A stretch of DNA of 64,000 nt from Candidatus Saccharicenans sp. (GTDB lineage Bacteria; Acidobacteriota; Aminicenantia; Aminicenantales; Saccharicenantaceae): the NCBI GenBank assembly GCA_030017715.1, contig JASEIU010000001.1:1079845-1143844 (forward strand). The letters run 5' to 3'. The notes below the pieces were generated by a model. It was given only the letters and a program-made list of their open reading frames with translations, ran no database searches and was not told the DNA's origin. Shown here one piece after another: positions 35,591 to 47,219 of the stretch (the stretch's first letter is position 1; every line of letters begins with the position of its first letter). The position numbers and the translations under genes were made by a program.

Positions 35591-36499
35591 TCAGGCCCCG
35601 GCTCTGGCCGGATATTCCGCTTTTTTCTCCGCCAGACGGAAGCCGTGAGAAATGCAGTTCGTCGGACAGACCTGTTCGCATTTAAGACATCTCAGGCACT
35701 GCGAGCTGTCGGGATTCTTATAAATTTTTATATTCACCGGACAGGCTTTCTGGCAGGCATCGCAGACTATGCATTGCTCCAGGTCCACCGTCATTCTGAA
35801 GGCGCTAACCCGGTTAAAAAATCCCAGGATCGTTCCCAGAGGGCAGACTGTCCGGCAAAAAGGCCTCATCGACAAGGCCATCCAGACCAGAAAAATAATC
35901 AGCAGCGCAAATTTCCAGGCGAACAGGAAACCCAGCTGGCTCCTTATGGCCGGATTCAAGAGGGAGAGTACCACTCCGGCCTCAAGCGTTCCGGCCGGGC
36001 AGACCCACTTGCAGAACCAGGGCCAACCCAGTCCGGAAGCATCCAGCGCCAGCAGCGGCAGCAACAAGACCAGAAAAACAAGAATCGCATATCTCAGGTA
36101 AGTCAGGAAAGCCGGAATTTGAATCTTGGGCAAAGGAAGCTTGTAGATAAGTTCCTGCAGCAAACCAAAAGGACACAGCCAGCCGCAGGGCAGACGACCG
36201 GCCAGCGTTCCCATCAGGCCGAGGCTGCCGATTACGTACAGACCGAGTTTTTTCTGACCGGCCCCCAGGTTGTACCTGAAAGAGTTAAGAGCGTTTTGCA
36301 GGGCGCCGACGGGACAGGCGCCCACGGCTGCCGGGCAAGAATAACAATTCAGGGCCGGCAGACACAGTCCCTTGGTAGGAACCTGGCTAACCCTTCCTTT
36401 GAGAAGAGAAACAACATCCAGATTGAATCCCAGGGCCGCCGCCAGCTGATATATTTTTCTCCTGGTTTCAGTTTTGATTCCCCTGGTTTTCATGGCCAT
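35591..36499 (-). CDS. Membrane 4Fe-4S binding protein (NapH/MauN-like)
   Basis: LNCYSCP..ACPVG, CGWLCPFG, FCKWVCPAG, FCRTVCPLG, two C-terminal ferredoxin motifs. Confidence 0.88.
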   Translation of the reverse strand: MAMKTRGIKTETRRKIYQLAAALGFNLDVVSLLKGRVSQVPTKGLCLPALNCYSCPAAVGACPVGALQNALNSFRYNLGAGQKKLGLYVIGSLGLMGTLAGRLPCGWLCPFGLLQELIYKLPLPKIQIPAFLTYLRYAILVFLVLLLPLLALDASGLGWPWFCKWVCPAGTLEAGVVLSLLNPAIRSQLGFLFAWKFALLIIFLVWMALSMRPFCRTVCPLGTILGFFNRVSAFRMTVDLEQCIVCDACQKACPVNIKIYKNPDSSQCLRCLKCEQVCPTNCISHGFRLAEKKAEYPARAGA

Positions 36500-36504
36500 G
36501 ATTC

Positions 36505-36645
36505 CTAACCGATGCCGATACATTCCAGACAGACGGTGACAGCCTTCTGCCAGACTACCCGAAATTCCCCGCCCAATAATCCCAGGGTTATTAATATCAG
36601 CGACAGAAACAAAAAGCCGAAAAACAATAGTCTTCTTTTATTCAT
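36505..36645 (-). CDS. Small CXXC membrane protein (CD1871A-like), 46 aa, missing from the ORF track
   Basis: MNKRRLLFFGFLFLSLILITLGLLGGEFRVVWQKAVTVCLECIGIG*. Fills the gap between the rhodanese and 4Fe-4S genes with 5-nt spacers on each side. Confidence 0.88.
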   Translation of the reverse strand: MNKRRLLFFGFLFLSLILITLGLLGGEFRVVWQKAVTVCLECIGIG

Positions 36646-36650
36646 CGTCG

Positions 36651-37556
36651 TTAACTCTTGCCGGTTTCAACCGGCAGCTCGTCCCTGTTGCTCCATTCAT
36701 TAAAACTTCCGTCGTAAAGCTGCACTTTCGGATAATGGAGAAGATACTTGAGAGTTAGATAAGTGTGAGAAGCCATCAGACCCTGGCCGCAGGAAACTAT
36801 AATAGTCTTATCCGGAGTAATACCCATTTCTCTTAGATTTTCGGCTATCATCTTGAGGTCTTTCCAGCTCCCGTCTTCCTTCAGAAAAGAAGCCCAGAAA
36901 ATGTTAATCGCGCCCGGGATATGACCGTTTCTTTTCCAGTTGCCGCGTTCTCCCGAAAAAAGCTCGGCCGACCTGACGTCCAGCAAGACCGTATTCCTCG
37001 AGTCCCTGTTCTTGACCTGTTCCAGGCGGGCCCTGACTGATTCGTCGGGATTGACTTTCTGGCCGTAGCCGGTGCGGCTCAGCCCGGGATAGTCACTGGA
37101 GACTGGTCTGTTTTCGTTCTTCCAGCGGTTAAAACCACCGTCAAGAATTGCCCAGCCCGGGTGTCTGATGTAATCAAGGGCCCAGCCCAGATAGGTGGCC
37201 CGATAATTATTTATTTCGGTATAAATGATGATGGTCGTTTTGTGATTTATTCCCATCTCTTCCAGCAATCGGACCAGGACTTCAACCGGAATAAGACGGC
37301 CGGGGACTCCGCTCTGTGGCCAGCGCAGGGCAGTCTCGTCCAGGTAAACAGCCCCCGGTATATGCCCGGACCAGTAATCCCTGATGTCAGCCCTCATGTC
37401 TATGATCCTGAGGCCGGGCAGATTAAGGTTGGCCTGAAGCCAGTCTCCAGAAACTAATCGCCGCTCGGGGGTCTGAGCCTGAAGTCCGGAAAACAGGGCC
37501 AGACTCAGCATGAGCAAGACTGTTCCCCGAATGAAGTTTACTGAGGTCCTTTTCAT
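36651..37556 (-). CDS. Exported tandem-domain sulfurtransferase (rhodanese)
   Basis: Signal peptide (..GLQA/Q), GHIPGA twice, LDGGF, active site CGQGLMA, YDGSFNEW. Confidence 0.9.
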   Translation of the reverse strand: MKRTSVNFIRGTVLLMLSLALFSGLQAQTPERRLVSGDWLQANLNLPGLRIIDMRADIRDYWSGHIPGAVYLDETALRWPQSGVPGRLIPVEVLVRLLEEMGINHKTTIIIYTEINNYRATYLGWALDYIRHPGWAILDGGFNRWKNENRPVSSDYPGLSRTGYGQKVNPDESVRARLEQVKNRDSRNTVLLDVRSAELFSGERGNWKRNGHIPGAINIFWASFLKEDGSWKDLKMIAENLREMGITPDKTIIVSCGQGLMASHTYLTLKYLLHYPKVQLYDGSFNEWSNRDELPVETGKS

Positions 37557-37608: not shown

Positions 37609-39633
37609 TCAATCAACCTTAGTCCAGGGAAAGCAGGTTATCCTCAACCTGGCGCAACCCATCGGAACCAACCTGATTCTGGTCTCAGGTTGTCTGGACA
37701 CGACCGGACTGGCCGGAACCTTACCGACCAGGCGGCCTTCTTCTTTCCAGTCGGGCAGCCTTCTGACCCTGGCCTCAAGAATCAGCGGGGCCGAATTAAG
37801 GGAAAAAGGCTGGTATTCTATCGGTCTCTTCTCGATAAGTTTAATGTCTGCGGCCGGAGACCCCGGGTTTAACAGCAGGGCATAATTCCAGGCTGAGGCC
37901 GGCAGAACTTCCCAGGCCGGCCAGTCATCTGTGCCCCCGGCTCTTTTCCATTCTTCTTTTATTTCCAGTGAGTACCAGAGAGGCCCCCGCCGGATCGAAG
38001 CCGCCTGGCCCAGGCCCGGCCAGAATTGAACCCTGACCTGCTCTTCCAATTCCAGCAAAATCCGGTCGCCGTATTTCCAGTCCCGGTCGATGACCGCAAA
38101 TTCTCCGGCTGCCCGGATTTCGCGGGAAGGGCCGCCGTTAACGGAAATGGAAGCCTTCTCCGTCCAGCCCGGAATTCTCAAGTAAAGCGGAAAAGAAACC
38201 GGTCGGTCGACATAAACTGTCAGCTCAATCCGACCGTCAAAGGGATAATCGGTATCCTGGATAATCCTGACCGTATTTCCCTGGTCGCCGGCCTTAAAAT
38301 TTACGGCTGAAGGCCCATAAAAAATTGCCGCTACTCCCTGATCGGAAGTGGCCAGCCAGAGATGTTCGATATAATACGGCCAGCCAAAGGCCACGTTATG
38401 CTGGCAGCAGCGATACTTCCAGGGATCAAACGAAAGCAGCTGGCCGGAGTTCTGGAAGTCATGTTCACCGGAACTGTCACAGGAAATCAGATTGGCGGCC
38501 GTCAGATAATGCAGAGCTTTCAGGTCGGGAGTCATGGCGGCCGGCAGGGAATTAACCGCGACCTCTTCAGCCCGGTCGGCGTAAATCACCTGTCCGGTTA
38601 TCTTGAGCAGTGATTCGAAACTGTTCATGAATTCCACCATGGTGCAGGTTTCTGCCCCCTGTCTGGGGTCGTTGTAGCCCGGCCTGATATTTTCATCGGC
38701 CGCGAACATGCCGCCCGGCTGCTGTCCGTAGGCTTCCCTGAGCTGGATATAATTTTTTTCCACAGCTTCCAGCAGCCGCCGGTCTCCCGTCTGCTGAAAA
38801 TAAACTCCGGGATATCTGAGGCCCATGGCAATATTGACCCCGTGATAGAAGGAGCTCTCTTCCCAGTCGCGGTCGCGCTCGGGAGTGAGCAGCGGAGAGG
38901 CCCAGTCGGCTGTACGCCGGTATAACCTGTGTCCAAGGTCCAGAAGCCATTTTTCTCCGGTCCGGTTATAAAGCCAGTAGACACTTTCCAGGTTTTCTCC
39001 GCCCCGGAGCTTCTGCCAGCTTCCCGGCAAAAGCTTTTCCTCCGGCAGATTTAGCTGGTAGCGAAAATAGGCCAGCATGAAATCGAGCACCCTCCTGTCG
39101 CCGCTGAATTCATAGTAACTCTGGAGACAGGCCAGGGCTACCATATTGGGCCAGAGGTCGTTATTCTCTTTATTTTCCACCGGACCGAAGTAACCATCAG
39201 GCTGCTGACTGTTTAATATGGCTTCCACCCATTTCCGGGCGGCGGCGATCATTTCCCGGTCTCCAAGAAGATAGGCCAGGTTGCCGTAACCTTTAAGCCA
39301 GTACGGCATTTCTTCCCAGCCGCGACCCTTGAGGGTAAGCCAGCCTGAATCAGACTGCAAATACCGGGATATTTCGGGCAGGCGTCCGGTCAGGCCTGTG
39401 GCCATCAGCCGGAGCTGACTCAGAAGCCAGCCCCTGGCTTCAATCCGGCCAAAGGGTAGTTTCAGCAGAGGATTGGCCTGCAGGGGCGGCCTGGAGCCCG
39501 GGTAATTAGGATTAGTCCTTTCCAGTGGCGGTGTCTTGGCAATCCTGATTTCGCTCACGGTCTGCCCTCCAGAAATACTTGGTACCGTTAATAGAACCAG
39601 AAGCAAGAGTGAAAGCCAGAATCTCCTGTTCAT
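37609..39633 (-). CDS. Secreted GH127/GH146 beta-L-arabinofuranosidase-like glycosidase
   Basis: GWEEMPYW, HGVN, GAETC..VE, YRCCQHN, TDYPF, LRIPGW, RGPL. Confidence 0.85.
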   Translation of the reverse strand: MNRRFWLSLLLLVLLTVPSISGGQTVSEIRIAKTPPLERTNPNYPGSRPPLQANPLLKLPFGRIEARGWLLSQLRLMATGLTGRLPEISRYLQSDSGWLTLKGRGWEEMPYWLKGYGNLAYLLGDREMIAAARKWVEAILNSQQPDGYFGPVENKENNDLWPNMVALACLQSYYEFSGDRRVLDFMLAYFRYQLNLPEEKLLPGSWQKLRGGENLESVYWLYNRTGEKWLLDLGHRLYRRTADWASPLLTPERDRDWEESSFYHGVNIAMGLRYPGVYFQQTGDRRLLEAVEKNYIQLREAYGQQPGGMFAADENIRPGYNDPRQGAETCTMVEFMNSFESLLKITGQVIYADRAEEVAVNSLPAAMTPDLKALHYLTAANLISCDSSGEHDFQNSGQLLSFDPWKYRCCQHNVAFGWPYYIEHLWLATSDQGVAAIFYGPSAVNFKAGDQGNTVRIIQDTDYPFDGRIELTVYVDRPVSFPLYLRIPGWTEKASISVNGGPSREIRAAGEFAVIDRDWKYGDRILLELEEQVRVQFWPGLGQAASIRRGPLWYSLEIKEEWKRAGGTDDWPAWEVLPASAWNYALLLNPGSPAADIKLIEKRPIEYQPFSLNSAPLILEARVRRLPDWKEEGRLVGKVPASPVVSRQPETRIRLVPMGCARLRITCFPWTKVD

Positions 39634-39729: not shown

Positions 39730-40815
39730 TCAAATCTGAACTTCATATATTTTTTTCATTTTTCCTAAACGCAGGCCGGGATTGAAGACCCAGGCATAGA
39801 GATTAACGCTCCGGAAATAAGGAAAAAATCTGCTGCCGATAAGGCAGGCCTGGGAATAATAACCCTTGTTCCATTCAATTACTCCGACCATTCCCTGCCC
39901 GGCCAGATAATTCAGGAGGGAATTAATAACTTCTCTTTTTTCTTTTGAATTCAACCGCTCCAGGTAGAGGTGGTTTAGCCAGGCCCAGCGTTCGACACTC
40001 TTCCCGAGATGTTCATGTTCCAGATAATTGATCAGCCCGGCCAGACGTCCCTCTTTTTTTATGGCCAGGACCGAAGAGACGCCAGGGCATAATATTTCCC
40101 TTTTCAATTCTTCGGGTCCGGTCCAGACCCTGGCCAGGTCGGCCCGGCCGCGGTAAGAATTGAGCAGGTCAACGGCTTCCGGCAGGTCAGTCAGGCTGAA
40201 TGGTTCAAGGCTCAGCCCCTCCGGCAGGCGAGGGGCCGGAAGCTTATGGGCACCCCAGATTCTTATGGCCCTTTCTTCCCAGCTCTTGAGGTTTTCGGAA
40301 TAACTGACCTTTTTCAGGTCCAGGACCCGTCCCAGGACATACATCTTTTTTAGGTATTGCAGGGGCTGCCCCTCTTTTTTAAATTTTTCTATCAATTGTG
40401 AAGAACGATGACCGGACTCAAGATAAAGCAGAGCGAAATCATAGCGGGTAATTTCCTGGTTGATTCTGACCGCCTCCCTGATCAGGGCTTGAGCCAGGCC
40501 CTTCCTGGCCAGTTCCCGCCGGCTGACCAGGAGACAGCTGAGGATGGCCCGATAGTGCTGACCGCGATAGTAAAAAGTGCGAGGAATGTTGCCCAGAAAA
40601 GCCAGGATTTCCCCGTTCTTATAGGCGGCCATAAAATGTCGGGGGTCAGAGGCCAGCCCCATCAGATAACGGACAAATTCCGGCCGATAGAGATTGGGAA
40701 AGGATGAAATTCCGTACTCGTCCCGCCAGGCGTGGTGAGCCATGTTTTCCAGGGCCTCCAGGTTTCCGCGAAAAGGTTCGATGGTAACGCCATTCAGGTC
40801 GGCTAATTCCGGCAT
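39730..40815 (-). CDS. Tandem-GNAT acyltransferase resembling N-myristoyltransferase
   Basis: GNAT acyl-CoA motif ([16 protein letters not shown]) and a second GNAT-like half. SD AGGAGG precedes ATG 40815. Confidence 0.7.
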   Translation of the reverse strand: [361 protein letters not shown]

Positions 40816-41032
40816 CCGGGCCTCCTGTAAATTCAGATTTGAGTTAAAAACCAATAATATCCGAACATGTCCGGCTTCTGCCCCGTCCTCAAAGGGGCGA
40901 AATTTCTCAGGCGGGCTAAATTATAATAAATTCCTTGACCGGCCTGAATATATTTTTTATAGAGACCTGTTGTCAAGGGCGTGGCGGAAAGCAAAAATTC
41001 TGTTGCCGGTATTTTTTTCTTAAAATCTGTTG

Positions 41033-41108: not shown

Positions 41109-43223
41109 TTGATCGACAACCGCCTTTATAAACATCCTATTCTACCGGTTGAGGACAGGCCTCTTTTCAGTTTTTATTTCCGTGATCGAGAGCTCAAGGC
41201 TCGACCCGGCGAAACCATCGCCTCTGCCCTGTTCGCCAACGGCATCAGAATTTTCAGCTACCACCACAAGGATGGAGCGCCCCAGGGGATTTTCTGCGCC
41301 AACGGCCAATGCGCACAGTGTCTGGTTCTGGCCGACGGCTTCCCGGTGAAATCCTGTATGGAATTGATAAAACCCGGAATGAAGATCGAACCTGTGGTGG
41401 GTTGGCCCGAACTCCCTCCGGTTGACCCGGAAGCGACGGTCGACTTTAAGCCGGTGGAAGAAATTGAAGTCTCGGTGCTGATTATAGGCGGAGGTCCAGC
41501 CGGGCTATCGGCCGCCATCGAACTCGGCCAGCGGGGTGTGGACTGCCTGCTGGTGGACGACAAACACCGTCTGGGAGGAAAACTGGTGCTTCAAACCCAC
41601 CGTTTCTTCGGCTCGGTGGAAGCGGTCTATGCCGGCACCAGGGGCATCGACATTGCCACCAGGCTGGAAAACGAGCTGCGACAGTACCCCCGGGTGGCAA
41701 TCTGGCTTCAGAGCACGGCTCTGGCGGTTTTCAGCGATAAGAAAGTCGGGATACTCAAAGAAAACAGGAAATACGCTCTGGTCAAGCCGAGGGTTTTGCT
41801 GGTGGCGGCCGGAGCGCGCGAAAAATCGCTGGCTTTCCCGGGAAATGACCTGCCCGGAGTTTATGGGGCCGGAGCCTTCCAGACTCTGGTCAATCGCGAC
41901 CTGGTCAAACCCACCGAAAAATTATTTATCGTCGGCGGCGGTAACGTCGGGTTAATCGCCGGATACCACGCACTTCAGGCCGGCATCAAGGTGGTCGGAC
42001 TGGTGGAAGTGATGCCCGAAGTCGGCGGCTATAAAGTTCACAAAGATAAACTGGCCAGGCTGGGAGTGCCCATTCTTACTTCCCATACCATACTGAGCGC
42101 CAACGGAAAGGATAATGTGGAATCGGTGACCATAGCCAGGGTGGATGAAAAATTCCGTCCTGTCCCGGGCAGCGAAAGAACCCTCAGCTGCGACACCGTT
42201 CTGATAGCAGTCGGGCTTGACCCGGTCAACGAGTTTTATCTTAAAGCCAGAGAATTCGGACTTCCGGTTTATGCGGCCGGAGATGCCGAGGAAATAGCCG
42301 AGGCTTCGGCGGCCATCTTTTCCGGCAAGATTCGCGGGCTGGAGATTGCCCGAGAGCTGGGCGCGGTTCAGGCTGAAGTTCCGGAAGACTGGTACCGGAC
42401 GGCCGAGATACTGAAATCCAGACCGGGCCGGACTTATCCCGAATATTATCCGGAAAAGGAAGAAGGGGTGTTTCCGGTCATTCACTGTCTTCAGGAGATC
42501 CCCTGCGACCCCTGCTCGGCCGTCTGCCCGAGGAAATTGATTGAGGTTGACCGCCGGGATGTCCGCAAGCTGCCTGTATATTATGAAGAAAAAGAAGGCA
42601 AGGGCTGCAGCGGCTGCGAGAGGTGCGTGGTTTTTTGCCCGGGTCTGGCGATAACTCTGGTTGATTACCGCCGCAATCCGGAATTTCCTGAAGTCACCAT
42701 TCCCTTTGAATTCTTAAAAGAAATCATCAATCCCGGAGATGAGGTTTCAGTGGTTGATATTTCCGGACAGGAACTGGCCAGGAGCAGGGTGATTTCAATC
42801 AAATCCATCAAGGGCAACGACCGGACGATTCTGGTCAAGGTTCAGGTACCCGGAGCAGTAGCCAAGAAGGTCAGCGGACTCAGGCTGCAACCTGAAATTA
42901 TCGAAACTGAAGAAAAATATCTGGAAAGAATTCCTGACGAAGCCATAATCTGTCGCTGTGAAAGAGTCACGGCCGGAGAAATCCGGAAATTGATCAGAGA
43001 AGGCGTCAGAGATATAAACGAGATCAAGACCATAACCAGAGCCGGCATGGGGCCCTGCGGGGCCAAGACCTGCACTCCGCTGGTTCATCGCCTGTTCCGC
43101 GAGGAGGGCGTTCCCGAAAGCGAAATCATCGACCAGCCCAAACGTCCGCTGTTCATAGAAGTGCCGCTGGGATTGTTTGCCGGTCTGGAAAAAGGAAAGG
43201 AGCCCGGGAATGAGTCGCGCTGA
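41109..43223 (+). CDS. Multidomain FAD/Fe-S oxidoreductase (sarcosine oxidase alpha / dye-linked proline dehydrogenase-like)
   Basis: 2Fe-2S motif FCANGQCAQC..SC, GGGPAG and GGGNVG, two 4Fe-4S motifs, BFD-like CRCE..GMGPC..TC. Confidence 0.85.
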   Translation: MIDNRLYKHPILPVEDRPLFSFYFRDRELKARPGETIASALFANGIRIFSYHHKDGAPQGIFCANGQCAQCLVLADGFPVKSCMELIKPGMKIEPVVGWPELPPVDPEATVDFKPVEEIEVSVLIIGGGPAGLSAAIELGQRGVDCLLVDDKHRLGGKLVLQTHRFFGSVEAVYAGTRGIDIATRLENELRQYPRVAIWLQSTALAVFSDKKVGILKENRKYALVKPRVLLVAAGAREKSLAFPGNDLPGVYGAGAFQTLVNRDLVKPTEKLFIVGGGNVGLIAGYHALQAGIKVVGLVEVMPEVGGYKVHKDKLARLGVPILTSHTILSANGKDNVESVTIARVDEKFRPVPGSERTLSCDTVLIAVGLDPVNEFYLKAREFGLPVYAAGDAEEIAEASAAIFSGKIRGLEIARELGAVQAEVPEDWYRTAEILKSRPGRTYPEYYPEKEEGVFPVIHCLQEIPCDPCSAVCPRKLIEVDRRDVRKLPVYYEEKEGKGCSGCERCVVFCPGLAITLVDYRRNPEFPEVTIPFEFLKEIINPGDEVSVVDISGQELARSRVISIKSIKGNDRTILVKVQVPGAVAKKVSGLRLQPEIIETEEKYLERIPDEAIICRCERVTAGEIRKLIREGVRDINEIKTITRAGMGPCGAKTCTPLVHRLFREEGVPESEIIDQPKRPLFIEVPLGLFAGLEKGKEPGNESR

Positions 43224-44367
43224 ATACGATGTCATCATAATCGGAGCCGGCAGCATCGGCACTCCGACTGCCCTGTTTCTGGCCCGGAAGGGATTCAGAG
43301 TCCTGGTGCTTGACCGCAATCCCAGTCCCGGGCAGAGTTCCAACAAAAGAGCCATCGGCGGCCTGAGGGCTACCCACTCCGACCCGGCCAAGATCAAGCT
43401 GGGTTTGCGCAGCCTGAAGATTTTTTCCACCTGGAAAGAGACTTACGGCGACGAAATTGAATGGCATCAGGGCGGTTATTGCTTTGTCGCTTACCGGGAA
43501 GAAGAAGAAAAGACGCTGAAGGAAGTTTTGCCCCTTCAAAAAAGACACGGACTGAAGATTGACTGGTTGGAGGCTGAGGAACTGAGAAAATTGCTTCCCG
43601 ACCTTAATCCCCGCGGCCTGAGAGGCGGGGCTTTTTCTCCTGAAGACGGAAATGCTTCTCCCCTGCTGGCGGTTGAGGCTTTCTACCGCCGGGCCCGGCA
43701 GGCCGGAGCTCAATTCCGATTTAGAGAAAATGTTAAAAATCTGGTGATTGAAAACGGTAAGGTCAAAGGAGTTGTCACCGATATCGGAAGCTATCAGGCC
43801 GGAGTGGTCATCAATGCGGCCGGAGCCTGGGCGGCTGAAGTGGCCGGGCTGGCCGGAATGAAAATTCCGGTAACTCCTGATTCTCACGAGGCGGCAGTTA
43901 CCGAACCGGTCCAGAGATTTTTTGAACCCATGGTGGTCGACATCCGACCGGTCAAAGGCTCAGCCAACTATTATTTCTATCAGCACGCCACCGGCCAGAT
44001 CATTTTCTGCATCACTCCCAGCCCAAGTCTCTGGGGTTTTGACGAGAGAGAGACCAGCGACTTCCTGCCAATGGTTTCCCGGAGGATGATTGAACTGATG
44101 CCCAGGCTTCAGAATATTCGGGTCAGAAGAACCTGGCGCGGGCTTTACCCCATGACGCCGGACGGCTTTCCCATCGTCGGCTGGTCAAAGGAAATTCAGG
44201 GCTTTTTGCTGGCCGTGGGCATGTGCGGCCAGGGCTTCATGCTTGGCCCGGGAGTGGCTGAGCTCCTGACCAGACTGGTTTCCGGCCAGCCCGGACCCGA
44301 CGACGAAGAAATCCTGTCTTACCTTTCGCCATACAGAAATTTCGTCAGCGAAGAAAAGCTTAAATAG
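43210..44367 (+). CDS. FAD-dependent amine/amino-acid oxidoreductase (DAO / sarcosine oxidase beta-like)
   Basis: DVIIIGAGSIG, NAAGAW, RTWRGLYPMTPDGFPIVG, GQGFMLGP. Confidence 0.88.
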   Translation: MSRAEYDVIIIGAGSIGTPTALFLARKGFRVLVLDRNPSPGQSSNKRAIGGLRATHSDPAKIKLGLRSLKIFSTWKETYGDEIEWHQGGYCFVAYREEEEKTLKEVLPLQKRHGLKIDWLEAEELRKLLPDLNPRGLRGGAFSPEDGNASPLLAVEAFYRRARQAGAQFRFRENVKNLVIENGKVKGVVTDIGSYQAGVVINAAGAWAAEVAGLAGMKIPVTPDSHEAAVTEPVQRFFEPMVVDIRPVKGSANYYFYQHATGQIIFCITPSPSLWGFDERETSDFLPMVSRRMIELMPRLQNIRVRRTWRGLYPMTPDGFPIVGWSKEIQGFLLAVGMCGQGFMLGPGVAELLTRLVSGQPGPDDEEILSYLSPYRNFVSEEKLK

Positions 44368-44384: not shown

Positions 44385-45143
44385 CTATCTCAAAATTAAC
44401 TGTCGGCCCTCGGCTTCCACCACCCGGAGCGGGTAGTCAAACAGCGTTCCCAGCAATTCTGCCCTGAATATTTCCGCGGTGGGCCCGGCAGCCAGAATTC
44501 GTCCTTTCTGGATCATGACCATAAAATCTGCCAGCCGGGGTATCAGGTCGATGCTGTGAATCGAAGTAATTATCATCTTGGCCCTGTCTTCAGCCAGTTT
44601 TTTCAGCAGACCGATTATTTCCATCTCGTGCTTGAGGTCGAGAAAGGTGGTCGGCTCATCCAGGAGAATTACTTTCGAATCCTGGGCCAGAGCTCTGGCT
44701 ATAAACACTATTCTTCTTTCTCCGCTGCTGAGCTCCTGACATTTACGTTGGGCCAGTTTCTCCAGTCCCAGGTAAGAAATAACCTCTTCTGTTTTTTCGT
44801 AATCTGCCCTGGCCGGGGGTGTGAAAATGTTAAGATAACCGCTCCGGCCCATAAGAATGAAATCGAAGACTCTGAAATTAAGGCTGGCGCTGTATTCCTG
44901 GGGAACGTAACTGACCAGTCTGGCCCTTTCCGGCCCTCTGAGCCCGGCCAGCTCTCGGCCGTCGATAAAAATAGCGCCCGCGACCGGCCTGACCAGTCCG
45001 GCCAGCGCCCGGAGCAACGTTGATTTGCCGGCCCCGTTGGGTCCTACCAGAACCGAGACCCGGTTGGGCGAAAAGGTCAGGTTTTCCACGCGCAGTTCGA
45101 AGTCTTCATACCTGACCTGAAGCTGTTCCACCCTGATCTGCAT
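44385..45143 (-). CDS. Iron-chelate/cobalamin ABC transporter ATPase
   Basis: GPNGAGKST, LSSGE, LLDEPT. Confidence 0.9.
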   Translation of the reverse strand: MQIRVEQLQVRYEDFELRVENLTFSPNRVSVLVGPNGAGKSTLLRALAGLVRPVAGAIFIDGRELAGLRGPERARLVSYVPQEYSASLNFRVFDFILMGRSGYLNIFTPPARADYEKTEEVISYLGLEKLAQRKCQELSSGERRIVFIARALAQDSKVILLDEPTTFLDLKHEMEIIGLLKKLAEDRAKMIITSIHSIDLIPRLADFMVMIQKGRILAAGPTAEIFRAELLGTLFDYPLRVVEAEGRQLILR

Positions 45144-45145
45144 GT

Positions 45146-46168
45146 TTAACTCCAGCTGGACCTGGCCCTTTTAATTAAAAATAGAAAGAAGGGAATTCCG
45201 ACCAGGTTGGTCAGAATGCCAACCGGGAATTCGAACGGAGACAGAACTCTAATCAGGTCGTCGGCCAGCAGCATCAGACTGGCTCCCAGACCGGCCGAGA
45301 CCGGCAGAACCAGGCGGTTGTCCGCCCCGACCAGTCCCCTGACGGCGTGTGGTACGATGAGCCCAACCCAGCCTATTATGCCAGCAATGGAAACCACGGC
45401 CGAGGTGATCAGGGCGGCCAGACAGATTATCAAAATTCTTTCTCTCTTAACGGCCAGCCCCAGAGACCTGGCTTCATCATCGCTCAGGCTCAGGGCATTT
45501 ATCCGCCAGCCCATTTTTATCAGCAAGGTCAGCCCTGCCAGAATCAACGGGCCGGACCACAGCAGGTCGGTCCAGGTAGCCTGAGAAAAGCTGCCCAGCA
45601 ACCAGAAAAATAGGGACTGGAGAGCATAGGGACTGGCCACAAATTCCAGAGCTGACAGCAGAGCCTGGAAAAGCGCCGATACGATTATTCCCGTGAGCAG
45701 GACGGCCACCAGGGTGTTTCTGGCCCCTTCTGAGATAACCAGCACCAGAACTACGGCCAGCAGCCCGCAGGCAAAGGCCAGCACCTGGGGCGGAAAGCTC
45801 CTGCTAAAGAGAATCAGCGAGGCTGCGGCTCCGAAACCGGCTCCGAAGGAAACACCCAGGACGTATTCATTAACCAGCGGGTTTCTAAAAAGAGATTGAA
45901 GTGAAGCTCCCGAAACCGAAAAAGCGGCCCCGGCCAGAAGAGCCAAAAGCACCCGGGGCAGTCTGATGTTCAAGACAATATTGGCCGCGGGACTGGATAA
46001 CAGAACCTGATTGACGCCTGATATCCTGGCCGCCAGAATTTCCAGCGCTTCCCGCACGGATACTTTTAAGGTGCCGAGACTTAAAGAGATTAACAGCAGG
46101 AGCAGCGGAAGCAAGAGGGACAGGAAAAGAATGGTTCTTTTTTTATTTTTTCTTATCGAACCAGTCAT
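45146..46168 (-). CDS. FecCD/BtuC family ABC permease
   Basis: IRLPR, FRNPL, GIIGWVGLIVPH, PVGILT..G.PFF. Confidence 0.92.
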   Translation of the reverse strand: MTGSIRKNKKRTILFLSLLLPLLLLLISLSLGTLKVSVREALEILAARISGVNQVLLSSPAANIVLNIRLPRVLLALLAGAAFSVSGASLQSLFRNPLVNEYVLGVSFGAGFGAAASLILFSRSFPPQVLAFACGLLAVVLVLVISEGARNTLVAVLLTGIIVSALFQALLSALEFVASPYALQSLFFWLLGSFSQATWTDLLWSGPLILAGLTLLIKMGWRINALSLSDDEARSLGLAVKRERILIICLAALITSAVVSIAGIIGWVGLIVPHAVRGLVGADNRLVLPVSAGLGASLMLLADDLIRVLSPFEFPVGILTNLVGIPFFLFLIKRARSSWS

Positions 46169-47219
46169 AAGCTTTTATTTTAGCACACAGCTCCCGGAAT
46201 AGCCCCGACCGGCGGTAAAAAAAAGAGAAAATTTCATCGCCAGCCTGTAACATGGTCTGGCTGTCCGGCGGTCCGCCCGACAGCAGGTCGGCCAGATAAA
46301 GACATTCTATCAGCACCAGGGCCGGGTCCCACCAGTACCAGAAACCGAAGGTGTAATACACCCTCTTTGCTCGAACCGCCCTTACGGTCTGCAGTCTCGG
46401 GTCTGACAATACCGTTTCCACGGTCACCGTCCTTTCTTCCGGAAGATAATTGCCGTGGATAAGGATTATCTCGGGGTCAAGAGACAGCAGGGTTTCCAGG
46501 TTGAGCACTGCGGTGTCCGACCCCGCGTGGATTCTCCGGAAACGACCGGCCAGGTTGCGCCCCCCGGCCAGGTCAACCGGCTCATAATCAACGGGCGACC
46601 GCAGCAGCGAACCCCAGAAACAGAGATAAACTCCGGGTCTTTTCTCTGGCTGAATATGAGAAGTTTTTTTCTTGATTTCAGCCAGCCTGAACCGCAGGTA
46701 ATCGGTCAGAAGCCGACCCCTTTTTTCGCTGCCGGTAATTCTGGACATGGCCTCAATTTCAGTCAGCAGGTCATCAACCTTCCCGACCGCGCTGAGACTG
46801 ACCACCGGACAGTTTAATTTACGGCTGAGGTTTCTGGAGAGCATTAGTTCAGAGGGAGAGATCAGCACCAGGTCGGGTTTCAGCTCAAGTATTTTTTCAA
46901 CATTGGCATCCTCGCCGGTAATCGACACTACCGGTAGATTAGCCACTTCCGGGAAAACTATCGGCAGTATATGGTCATAGCGGGAGGGAAAGCGGTCAAC
47001 CGCCACCACCTTTTCCTGCTGCTCCAGGGCCACCAGTATTCTGAGCAATTCCGGCTGCAGGCAAACTATTCTCTCCACTCTGGCCGGGATCTTCACCTGC
47101 CGGCCCAGACTGTCTTTAATGGTAATCCGGGTCGAGTCCGAACCTTTAACTTCGGCTATGGAGACCAGCAGGAACAGCAGAAACACAATGCTCTTTTTCC
47201 AGGTTGTTATCCGGTTCAT
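46143..47219 (-). CDS. ABC substrate-binding protein (FecB/BtuF class)
   Basis: Signal peptide, DSLGRQV..P..VERIV, NVEKILELKPDLV, AVRAKRVY. Confidence 0.88.
   Translation of the reverse strand: MNRITTWKKSIVFLLFLLVSIAEVKGSDSTRITIKDSLGRQVKIPARVERIVCLQPELLRILVALEQQEKVVAVDRFPSRYDHILPIVFPEVANLPVVSITGEDANVEKILELKPDLVLISPSELMLSRNLSRKLNCPVVSLSAVGKVDDLLTEIEAMSRITGSEKRGRLLTDYLRFRLAEIKKKTSHIQPEKRPGVYLCFWGSLLRSPVDYEPVDLAGGRNLAGRFRRIHAGSDTAVLNLETLLSLDPEIILIHGNYLPEERTVTVETVLSDPRLQTVRAVRAKRVYYTFGFWYWWDPALVLIECLYLADLLSGGPPDSQTMLQAGDEIFSFFYRRSGLFRELCAKIKAYDWFDKKK

Follow-up and report, generated by a model that had tools for sequence, protein, structure and literature searches.

A bacterial double-GNAT protein of Candidatus Saccharicenans distantly related to eukaryotic N-myristoyltransferase

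N-myristoyltransferase (NMT) is the textbook example of a eukaryote-only enzyme and a drug target, and two questions attach to it: where it came from, and why it uses its own C-terminus as the catalytic base. Does a bacterial genome encode a relative of this enzyme? The question is raised by a gene at positions 39730–40815 of a 64,000-nucleotide stretch of the Candidatus Saccharicenans sp. genome (assembly GCA_030017715.1, contig JASEIU010000001.1, positions 1,079,845 to 1,143,844). This stretch is referred to as the window, and unlabelled coordinates are positions within it. The product of the gene, designated P0001, had been compared by eye with human NMT1 and proposed to be collinear with it. 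We found that P0001 is a true distant relative of NMT and not a canonical NMT. Its subfamily adds a bacterial variant to a branch of the NMT superfamily that was noticed only recently and is uncharacterised; it does not constitute a new kind of system, because bacterial NMT-type folds are already reported in excerpts of PMC12219266.

A homologue search covering 5.8 billion proteins yielded 180 relatives of P0001 at E≤1e-3. The 120 listed span 327–370 aa; those that are named come from Candidatus Saccharicenans or Aminicenantes and are annotated as 'hypothetical protein' or 'GNAT family N-acetyltransferase'. We built an alignment and profile from 48 close homologues (A1; mean column identity 59%, 45 invariant residues) and used it in a HMMER scan of 1.84 billion representatives of 50% identity clusters, which returned 398 clusters at E≤1e-3, 249 of them also passing E≤1e-10. 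Among the 150 representatives listed, 102 were full length, mostly ~345–365 aa. Together with 7 close sequences, these make up the 109 rows of a wider-family alignment (A2; mean identity 22%). In the Atlas the related clusters have about eight commonest phyla. Longer homologues were sought with A2 and with an alignment of 20 N-terminal pieces (A4), and neither longer nor fused forms were found, which is weak evidence.

Searched as a single sequence, P0001 matches Pfam Acetyltransf_1 at residues 37–118 (E 2.2e-5) and Acetyltransf_9 and no other family; a single-sequence search of the PDB gave nothing relevant, and neither P0001 nor 10 distant members had a meaningful match in NCBIfam. Profiles of the family gave a specific answer. 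Of the 49 matches of the A1 profile at E≤10 among all PDB chains, 44 were NMT (best 1.1e-5), and these matches fall in two collinear stretches, one per domain. With the A2 profile, the 44 best distinct PDB sequences were all NMT, at E-values from 5.7e-24 to 8e-17, the top match being human NMT1 (5.7e-24, 88 bits). The first matches outside NMT were AAC(2') (8e-8), Eis2 (1.4e-7) and Eis (1.9e-6), each over one GNAT domain only. The A2 profile is free of contamination by true NMTs, because no A2 member scores like a canonical NMT. At E≤1, 26/48 A1 members match Pfam NMT_C and 7/48 match Pfam NMT; for A2, the counts at E≤0.01 are 39/109 for PF01233 (best 3.9e-12) and 31/109 for PF02799 (best 3e-7). 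Two distant members pass the Pfam gathering cut-offs, which are 25 bits for NMT and 27.9 bits for NMT_C: P0260 scores 30.8 bits on NMT and P0146 scores 30.7 bits on NMT_C.

The predicted structure leads to the same family. The AlphaFold2 model of P0001, computed from A1, has a predicted local distance difference test (pLDDT) score of 93.2 and a predicted template modelling score of 0.90, and consists of two GNAT-like alpha/beta halves, as the two-GNAT architecture in the original prediction had it. In this model P0001 carries two fused GNAT-like domains in NMT topology. All of the Foldseek matches listed against the PDB (ranks 1–50) are NMT, at E 1.4e-21 and below, with template modelling (TM) scores of 0.74–0.78. 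These alignments occupy 364–412 columns for a query of 361 residues and run the full length. With NMT E-values of 1.1e-5 (A1 profile), 5.7e-24 (A2 profile) and 1.4e-21 (fold), chance is far from explaining the match. NMT (EC 2.3.1.97; PF01233 + PF02799; human NMT1/2, yeast Nmt1p and the Plasmodium and Leishmania enzymes) and P0001 share domain order and topology. NMT far outranks Eis and generic GNATs in the profile and fold searches, the opposite of the ranking that the original prediction had named as its refutation. FemABX is missing among the PDB and Foldseek rows listed.

The N-terminal GNAT domain (~residues 10–164; 40324..40788, minus strand) is supported by the Acetyltransf_1 match, the NMT1 alignment and the model, and is the presumed acyl-coenzyme A (acyl-CoA)-binding and catalytic half. 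The C-terminal GNAT-like domain (~residues 200–343; 39787..40218, minus strand) is supported by conservation in A1, the NMT1 alignment and the matches to NMT_C, and does not have the G-x-G/A CoA loop. With hmmalign, P0001 residues 17–126 align to human NMT1 167–277 and residues 155–269 to NMT1 291–405, and collinear profile similarity reaches P0001 residue 314 with the Leishmania NMT. Five of the six blocks originally matched by eye to NMT1 were recovered residue for residue in HMMER alignments, while the sixth, at the C-terminus, lies outside all of them. The first recovered block contains YRPEFVRY, another has HRSLNPRKL on the NMT1 side, and a third pairs HKLP...DLLNSY...LARVW of P0001 with YRLP...QLLTRY...LTPVM of NMT1.

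The beta4-alpha3 loop, which binds the CoA pyrophosphate in GNATs, corresponds to residues 99–108 (40492..40521, minus strand) by A1 conservation and the NMT alignment. Two of its residues, R104 and G106, are invariant and a third, A108, is conserved in at least 90% of sequences, and the segment R104-K-G106-L-A108 (RKGLA) aligns with KRVAP of NMT (within KLRSKRVA). L95 and L96 form a hydrophobic pair at the F and L positions of the NMT signature EINFLC, a beta-bulge motif, which contribute the oxyanion hole, and the Asn of the motif aligns with C94. In the C-terminal domain W231, E240, H269, W277-A-W279, H282, F330-F-P-Y333 and R335 are invariant.

The end of the chain is fixed. The C-terminal tail, defined by chain-end counts in A1 and by the model, comprises residues 344–361 (39733..39786, minus strand), with E358 invariant. 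All 48 A1 sequences end exactly 31 residues past the F330 column, with the sequence [YN]E[VI][QL][IV]; among 121 close homologues the chain ends YEVQI (75), NEILV (20) and YEIQV (12) occur. Across A2, 107/109 sequences share one end column, and 68/109 end 31 residues past the F330 column (range 28–37). In contrast, N-terminal lengths in A2 vary between 0 and 27. Endings differ by subfamily, being E-x-x-[IVL] in the P0001 subfamily and W-R in 24/24 sequences of a sister subfamily, the WR type, described below; 67/102 wider-family representatives end in Arg. Human NMT1 presumably ends GLVLQ, as compared with the P0001 tail [YN]-E-[VI]-[QL]-[IV] and its invariant Glu at position −4. P0001 and the NMTs have nearly the same number of residues past the last aligned column (92 versus 91 with human NMT1, 77 versus 76 with P. 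vivax NMT, 47 versus 44 with L. major NMT). This agreement in length, to within 1–3 residues, and the 364–412 columns of the Foldseek alignments lend indirect support to the claim that P0001 ends at the position equivalent to the end of NMT, and the chain end is strictly conserved. In the AlphaFold2 model tail residues 351–360 average pLDDT 89, and a beta-bridge is present at 356–357. In human NMT1 the last residue, Gln496, extends into the active site, and the catalytic base is the carboxylate of the C-terminus, as described in excerpts of PMC12219266.

Several observations weigh against reading P0001 as a member of the NMT superfamily, or as an NMT in function. On its own, P0001 gives no match to Pfam NMT or to NMT_C at E≤10, and the genome-wide scan gave none either; its best close homologue, P0045, reaches 26.1 bits on NMT_C, below the 27.9-bit cut-off. 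Identity to NMT structures in the Foldseek alignments is just 14–17%. The counterpart of EINFLC in the HMMER alignments reads L92-S-C-L-L-V97 (LSCLLV), so that this signature is not conserved, as had been noted from the sequence. An oxyanion-hole function may persist without the motif, because the hole consists of backbone amides. P0001 lacks an equivalent of about 36–40 residues in the N-terminal part of the NMT core: the alignment begins at P0001 residue 17 versus residue 53 of the 382-residue crystallised human core chain. This part of the NMT core, which precedes the first GNAT strand, contributes to myristoyl-CoA binding. At the other end, the last 47–92 residues of P0001 lie outside every HMMER alignment. 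Excerpts of PMC12219266 also caution against taking an NMT-type fold in distant organisms as proof that the protein has NMT activity. In sum of likeness and difference, P0001 resembles NMT in the CoA-loop alignment, the hydrophobic pair at the oxyanion position, the chain-end position as judged by length and the conserved C-terminus; unlike NMT, it has neither EINFLC nor the ~40 core residues nor any of the eukaryotic N-terminal extension, and it scores below the Pfam cut-offs.

Proteins of this shape have been noticed before, and the literature searches on this point turned up a single paper with a mention of prokaryotic NMT-type proteins. The excerpts of PMC12219266 (Nat Commun 2025, on HisAT/NAT16) define the NMT type as a double-GNAT protein in which, as in NMT1, the chain finishes with its C-terminus at the active site, and report NMT-type double-GNAT models in bacteria and archaea with no assigned function. 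P0001 shows the traits of the prokaryotic NMT-type double-GNAT superfamily, namely a length of ~345–365 aa, a double-GNAT fold, NMT as the nearest solved family and a fixed chain end. The idea of an undescribed bacterial system is thus only partly borne out, since NMT-type bacterial models had already been reported, though with no function. Unlike the P0001 family here, the NMT-type proteins in those excerpts come without an analysis of sequence profiles, distribution, C-terminal motif or neighbourhood. HisAT/NAT16 and mitochondrial GLYAT are double-GNATs like P0001 and act on free amino acids. According to the same excerpts, their active domain is the N-terminal one, the acceptor alpha-amine sits between the domains and longer acyl-CoAs are possible; in the HisAT type the chain stops directly behind the last strand, and the substrate is bound by a tryptophan of the beta7-beta8 hairpin. 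Unlike the HisAT type, P0001 has in the model an 18-residue tail past the last strand, E331-343. NAT16 and GLYAT are both absent from the 60 PDB rows listed for A2 and from the Foldseek rows listed. In a separate context, a table in PMC9879509, on tandem repeats in Borgs, includes one protein subfamily with the Pfam label PF01233; Borgs are elements of methane-oxidising archaea.

The P0001 coding sequence occupies 39730..40815 on the minus strand, with an ATG start codon at 40815 and the stop codon at 39732-39730, and encodes an NMT-like double-GNAT protein of 361 aa; the open reading frame and its translation, the homologues and the substitution rates support this assignment. The open frame spans 39730-40854, and a longer version starting at TTG would be 374 aa. 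This start is unsupported, as homologues in A1 begin at the ATG position. We assign 361 aa because a Shine-Dalgarno sequence AGGAGG, read from the sequence (40821..40826, minus strand; 5-nt spacer), precedes the ATG and homologues begin there. No hydrophobic or membrane segment is present in P0001 (highest Kyte-Doolittle mean 1.02 in a 19-residue window). Coordinates, translation and hydropathy agree with the protein as originally predicted, a 361-aa cytoplasmic product. A consensus scan gave a promoter-like TTGACA-18-TATATT (11/12) at 40947..40976 on the minus strand, ~130 nt upstream of the ATG; it is weak evidence for a promoter, because the scan gave 2 sites versus 1.5 expected in shuffles. 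The ratio of nonsynonymous to synonymous substitution rates (dN/dS) is 0.09–0.12 against three same-genus orthologues, and the gene is therefore under purifying selection. This, its own Shine-Dalgarno sequence and the promoter-like site speak for a live gene.

The distribution of the gene is patchy. The source genome (G000; 2.89 Mb, 92.6% complete) has one copy. The gene is found in 61/121 sampled genomes of its order (42/88 of high quality), in 8/9 families; 8/201 genomes of the phylum sample match at E≤1e-10, and the family occurs in 3/151 genomes of the Planctomycetota sample. Three of the nine sampled same-genus genomes, G000 not counted, cleanly lack the gene and keep both flanking genes, with gaps at the empty site of 241 bp (G272), 446 bp (G248) and 2.9 kb (G311). 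The gap at the G311 locus (G311:C12:329300-332700) holds a gene for a 711-aa HEFGH (M3-like) peptidase on the opposite strand. Also in G311, tblastn pairs the last residues of P0001 with a stretch of 9 residues immediately ahead of the GH127 gene (E = 1, not significant). Broken copies are present in G299 (C45:105280-106348), which has an in-frame TAA, and in G214 (C14:2960-4150), which has an in-frame TGA; the copy in G274 (C2:1170-2227) is split into two adjacent pieces, and fragmentary copies occur in G289 (C15:41447-41749), G167 and G286. The gene is accessory and has been repeatedly lost, as indicated by its patchiness in the order, the clean same-genus absences and the broken copies. In this it is unlike NMT. 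NMT is regarded as essential in eukaryotes.

Neighbouring genes in the window look ordinary. Downstream of the P0001 gene, and on the same minus strand, lie genes for a secreted hydrolase that is a GH127-like beta-L-arabinofuranosidase and begins like a signal peptide (37609-39633), a two-domain rhodanese (36651-37556) and a polyferredoxin (35591-36523). Upstream and divergent is the pair of a 2Fe-2S/FAD oxidoreductase and its DAO-family partner (41109-44367, plus strand), followed by a FecCD-type ABC importer (44385-47219, minus strand). We compared the neighbourhoods of 21 loci; the target gene was called in 17 of them and missed by a crude open reading frame picker in 4. No conserved partner gene was found across the 17 loci. 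A conserved operon for the Aminicenantes subfamily was considered and rejected, as neighbours are common only within the genus. Outside the genus they differ and include glycoside hydrolases, TonB, M28 and M19 peptidases, an amino-acid permease and a GDSL lipase. The intergenic DNA flanking the P0001 gene contains no small open reading frame starting Met-Gly and no Rfam element, and the small-frame scan of this DNA bears out the earlier remark that no Met-Gly substrate lies beside the gene.

The WR type, with its invariant W-R-COOH end, has a more informative context. It occurs in 49/201 genomes of one Planctomycetota order, and its model (A3; pLDDT 93.4) also retrieves NMT with Foldseek (E 1.3e-21, TM 0.76–0.80). 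We compared 24 WR-type loci (L056, L060-L062, L076-L095) from G319, G322, G437 and 16 other genomes. In 7/24 the next gene downstream, on the same strand, encodes a GH3-family amido synthetase, and in three of these seven an LPG_synthase_C-like gene comes next. An LPG_synthase_C-like gene is itself directly downstream on the same strand in 9/24 and convergent in 1/24, and 7/24 loci have neither gene. Twenty-two copies from other genomes and the second copy of the query genome are 28–50% identical to the query copy, and one further copy is 80% identical. Because the copies are only 28–50% identical, the linkage to GH3 and LPG_synthase_C is old, although related genomes do not count as independent. 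The Planctomycetaceae genome G319 (CP051247.1) has two WR-type paralogues that are ~30% identical (C1:3052993-3054051 and C1:4433106-4434161; L057, L058); a GH3 gene adjoins one of the two, and an LPG_synthase_C gene adjoins the other. As both families make bonds to amino acids, there are hints that the acceptor of the WR subfamily is an aminoacyl small molecule or lipid.

This hint is not transferable to the P0001 subfamily, because GH3 is absent and LPG_synthase_C lies elsewhere and does not co-vary with the P0001 gene. No GH3 gene was found in G000, which is 92.6% complete, and its single LPG_synthase_C-like gene is on another contig (G000:C12:151298-152092; L096). That gene is stand-alone, an open frame of 327 aa that is too short for the full MprF membrane domain. 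LPG_synthase_C (PF09924) is found in 90/121 genomes of the order, and a link to the P0001 gene was rejected, since PF09924 occurs in 48/61 genomes with the gene versus 42/60 without.

The homology of P0001 to NMT and its NMT-type architecture rest on good evidence. From this homology we infer an NMT-like mechanism for P0001, which is probably a soluble enzyme of the NMT superfamily with two fused GNAT-like domains. The N-terminal domain would bind acyl-CoA through the R104-x-G106-x-A108 loop, and the backbone amides of L95/L96, aligned with the oxyanion-hole pair of NMT, would polarise the thioester. The acceptor amine would lie between both domains, up against the C-terminal one, which is highly conserved. 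The tail of P0001 itself (YEVQI-COOH, in which E358 is invariant) may reach the active site and help to deprotonate the amine, and the product would be an N-acylated primary amine, most likely at an alpha-amino group. The dependence on CoA and the role of the tail are predicted by homology. As to the acceptor, our tentative first choice is the amine of a small molecule or of an aminoacyl or lipid head group; a protein or peptide N-terminus appears less likely, and the remaining probability goes to something else.

A specific form of the protein alternative is that P0001 is a bacterial N-terminal fatty-acylation enzyme, transferring a long acyl chain to the N-terminal amine (Gly or other) of cytoplasmic proteins after methionine removal. 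NMT is the sole solved family that resembles P0001 over its full length, and the C-terminal domain, whose NMT counterpart makes up the peptide groove, is highly conserved (invariant W231, H269, WAW277-279, H282, FFPY330-333). The gene also stands alone without biosynthetic neighbours, as is often so for protein-modifying GNATs. To set against this, no candidate substrate was found, with neither an adjoining Met-Gly open reading frame nor a partner across the 17 loci, and the Asn of EINFLC is replaced in the alignment by C94. The gene is dispensable, being absent from 60/121 genomes of the order and deleted in 3/9 of the same genus, and in the WR type the conserved genes alongside encode a GH3 amido synthetase and an aminoacyl transferase resembling LPG_synthase_C. 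To our knowledge, most characterised bacterial double-GNATs act on small molecules. We consider a protein-acylating P0001 rather unlikely.

Two further explanations would deny P0001 a place as a functional NMT relative. It could be an ordinary GNAT acetyltransferase (Eis, aminoglycoside or Rim type) that resembles NMT through the shared GNAT fold only, and the single-sequence Pfam result (Acetyltransf_1 and Acetyltransf_9 only) and the public labels 'GNAT family N-acetyltransferase' or 'hypothetical' read this way. Like Eis, the N-terminal GNAT domain matches Acetyltransf_9 in 48/48 close homologues. The Eis and Eis2 matches in the PDB are, however, limited to profile positions 50–128; with A2, NMT is ~16 orders of magnitude ahead and covers both domains, as compared with one for Eis and AAC. 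Eis has a third, SCP2-like domain, and P0001 shows none. The Foldseek rows listed are all NMT, full length at TM 0.77, and a fixed C-terminus is an NMT-type trait according to the excerpts of PMC12219266; we regard an ordinary acetyltransferase as very improbable. The least probable account, in our view barely credible, is that a eukaryotic NMT was recently transferred into bacteria and has since decayed, or that P0001 is a non-catalytic remnant. The patchiness of the family (8/201 in the phylum, 3/151 in Planctomycetota) and the broken copies in G299, G214 and G274 would suit such a history. The family is nevertheless deep and wide in bacteria (398 clusters, A2 identity 22%, about eight commonest phyla) and only 14–17% identical to eukaryotic NMT, and a dN/dS of ~0.1, many invariant residues and an invariant tail speak against decay.

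P0001 is thus best read as a distant bacterial relative of NMT, and its value lies in what the family may reveal. We would offer only as speculation, and as an improbable one, the wider proposal that in some bacteria an NMT-like enzyme lipidates, or N-acylates in another way, the alpha-amine of specific proteins or aminoacyl-lipids with its C-terminal carboxylate as base. If this were true, the chemistry of N-myristoylation would predate eukaryotes, and NMT would have arisen from a deep, mostly bacterial superfamily and not as an invention of eukaryotes. Provided that it is expressed well in a laboratory host, the bacterial subfamily, whose chain end differs from that of NMT yet is equally invariant, would make a simple test system and could show whether catalysis by the C-terminal carboxylate is ancestral to the superfamily. 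The Planctomycetota cassettes of an NMT-like gene, GH3 and LPG_synthase_C are a concrete starting point, and the identity of the acceptor would reveal either a new bacterial modification of protein N-termini or N-acyl metabolites or lipids of a new class.

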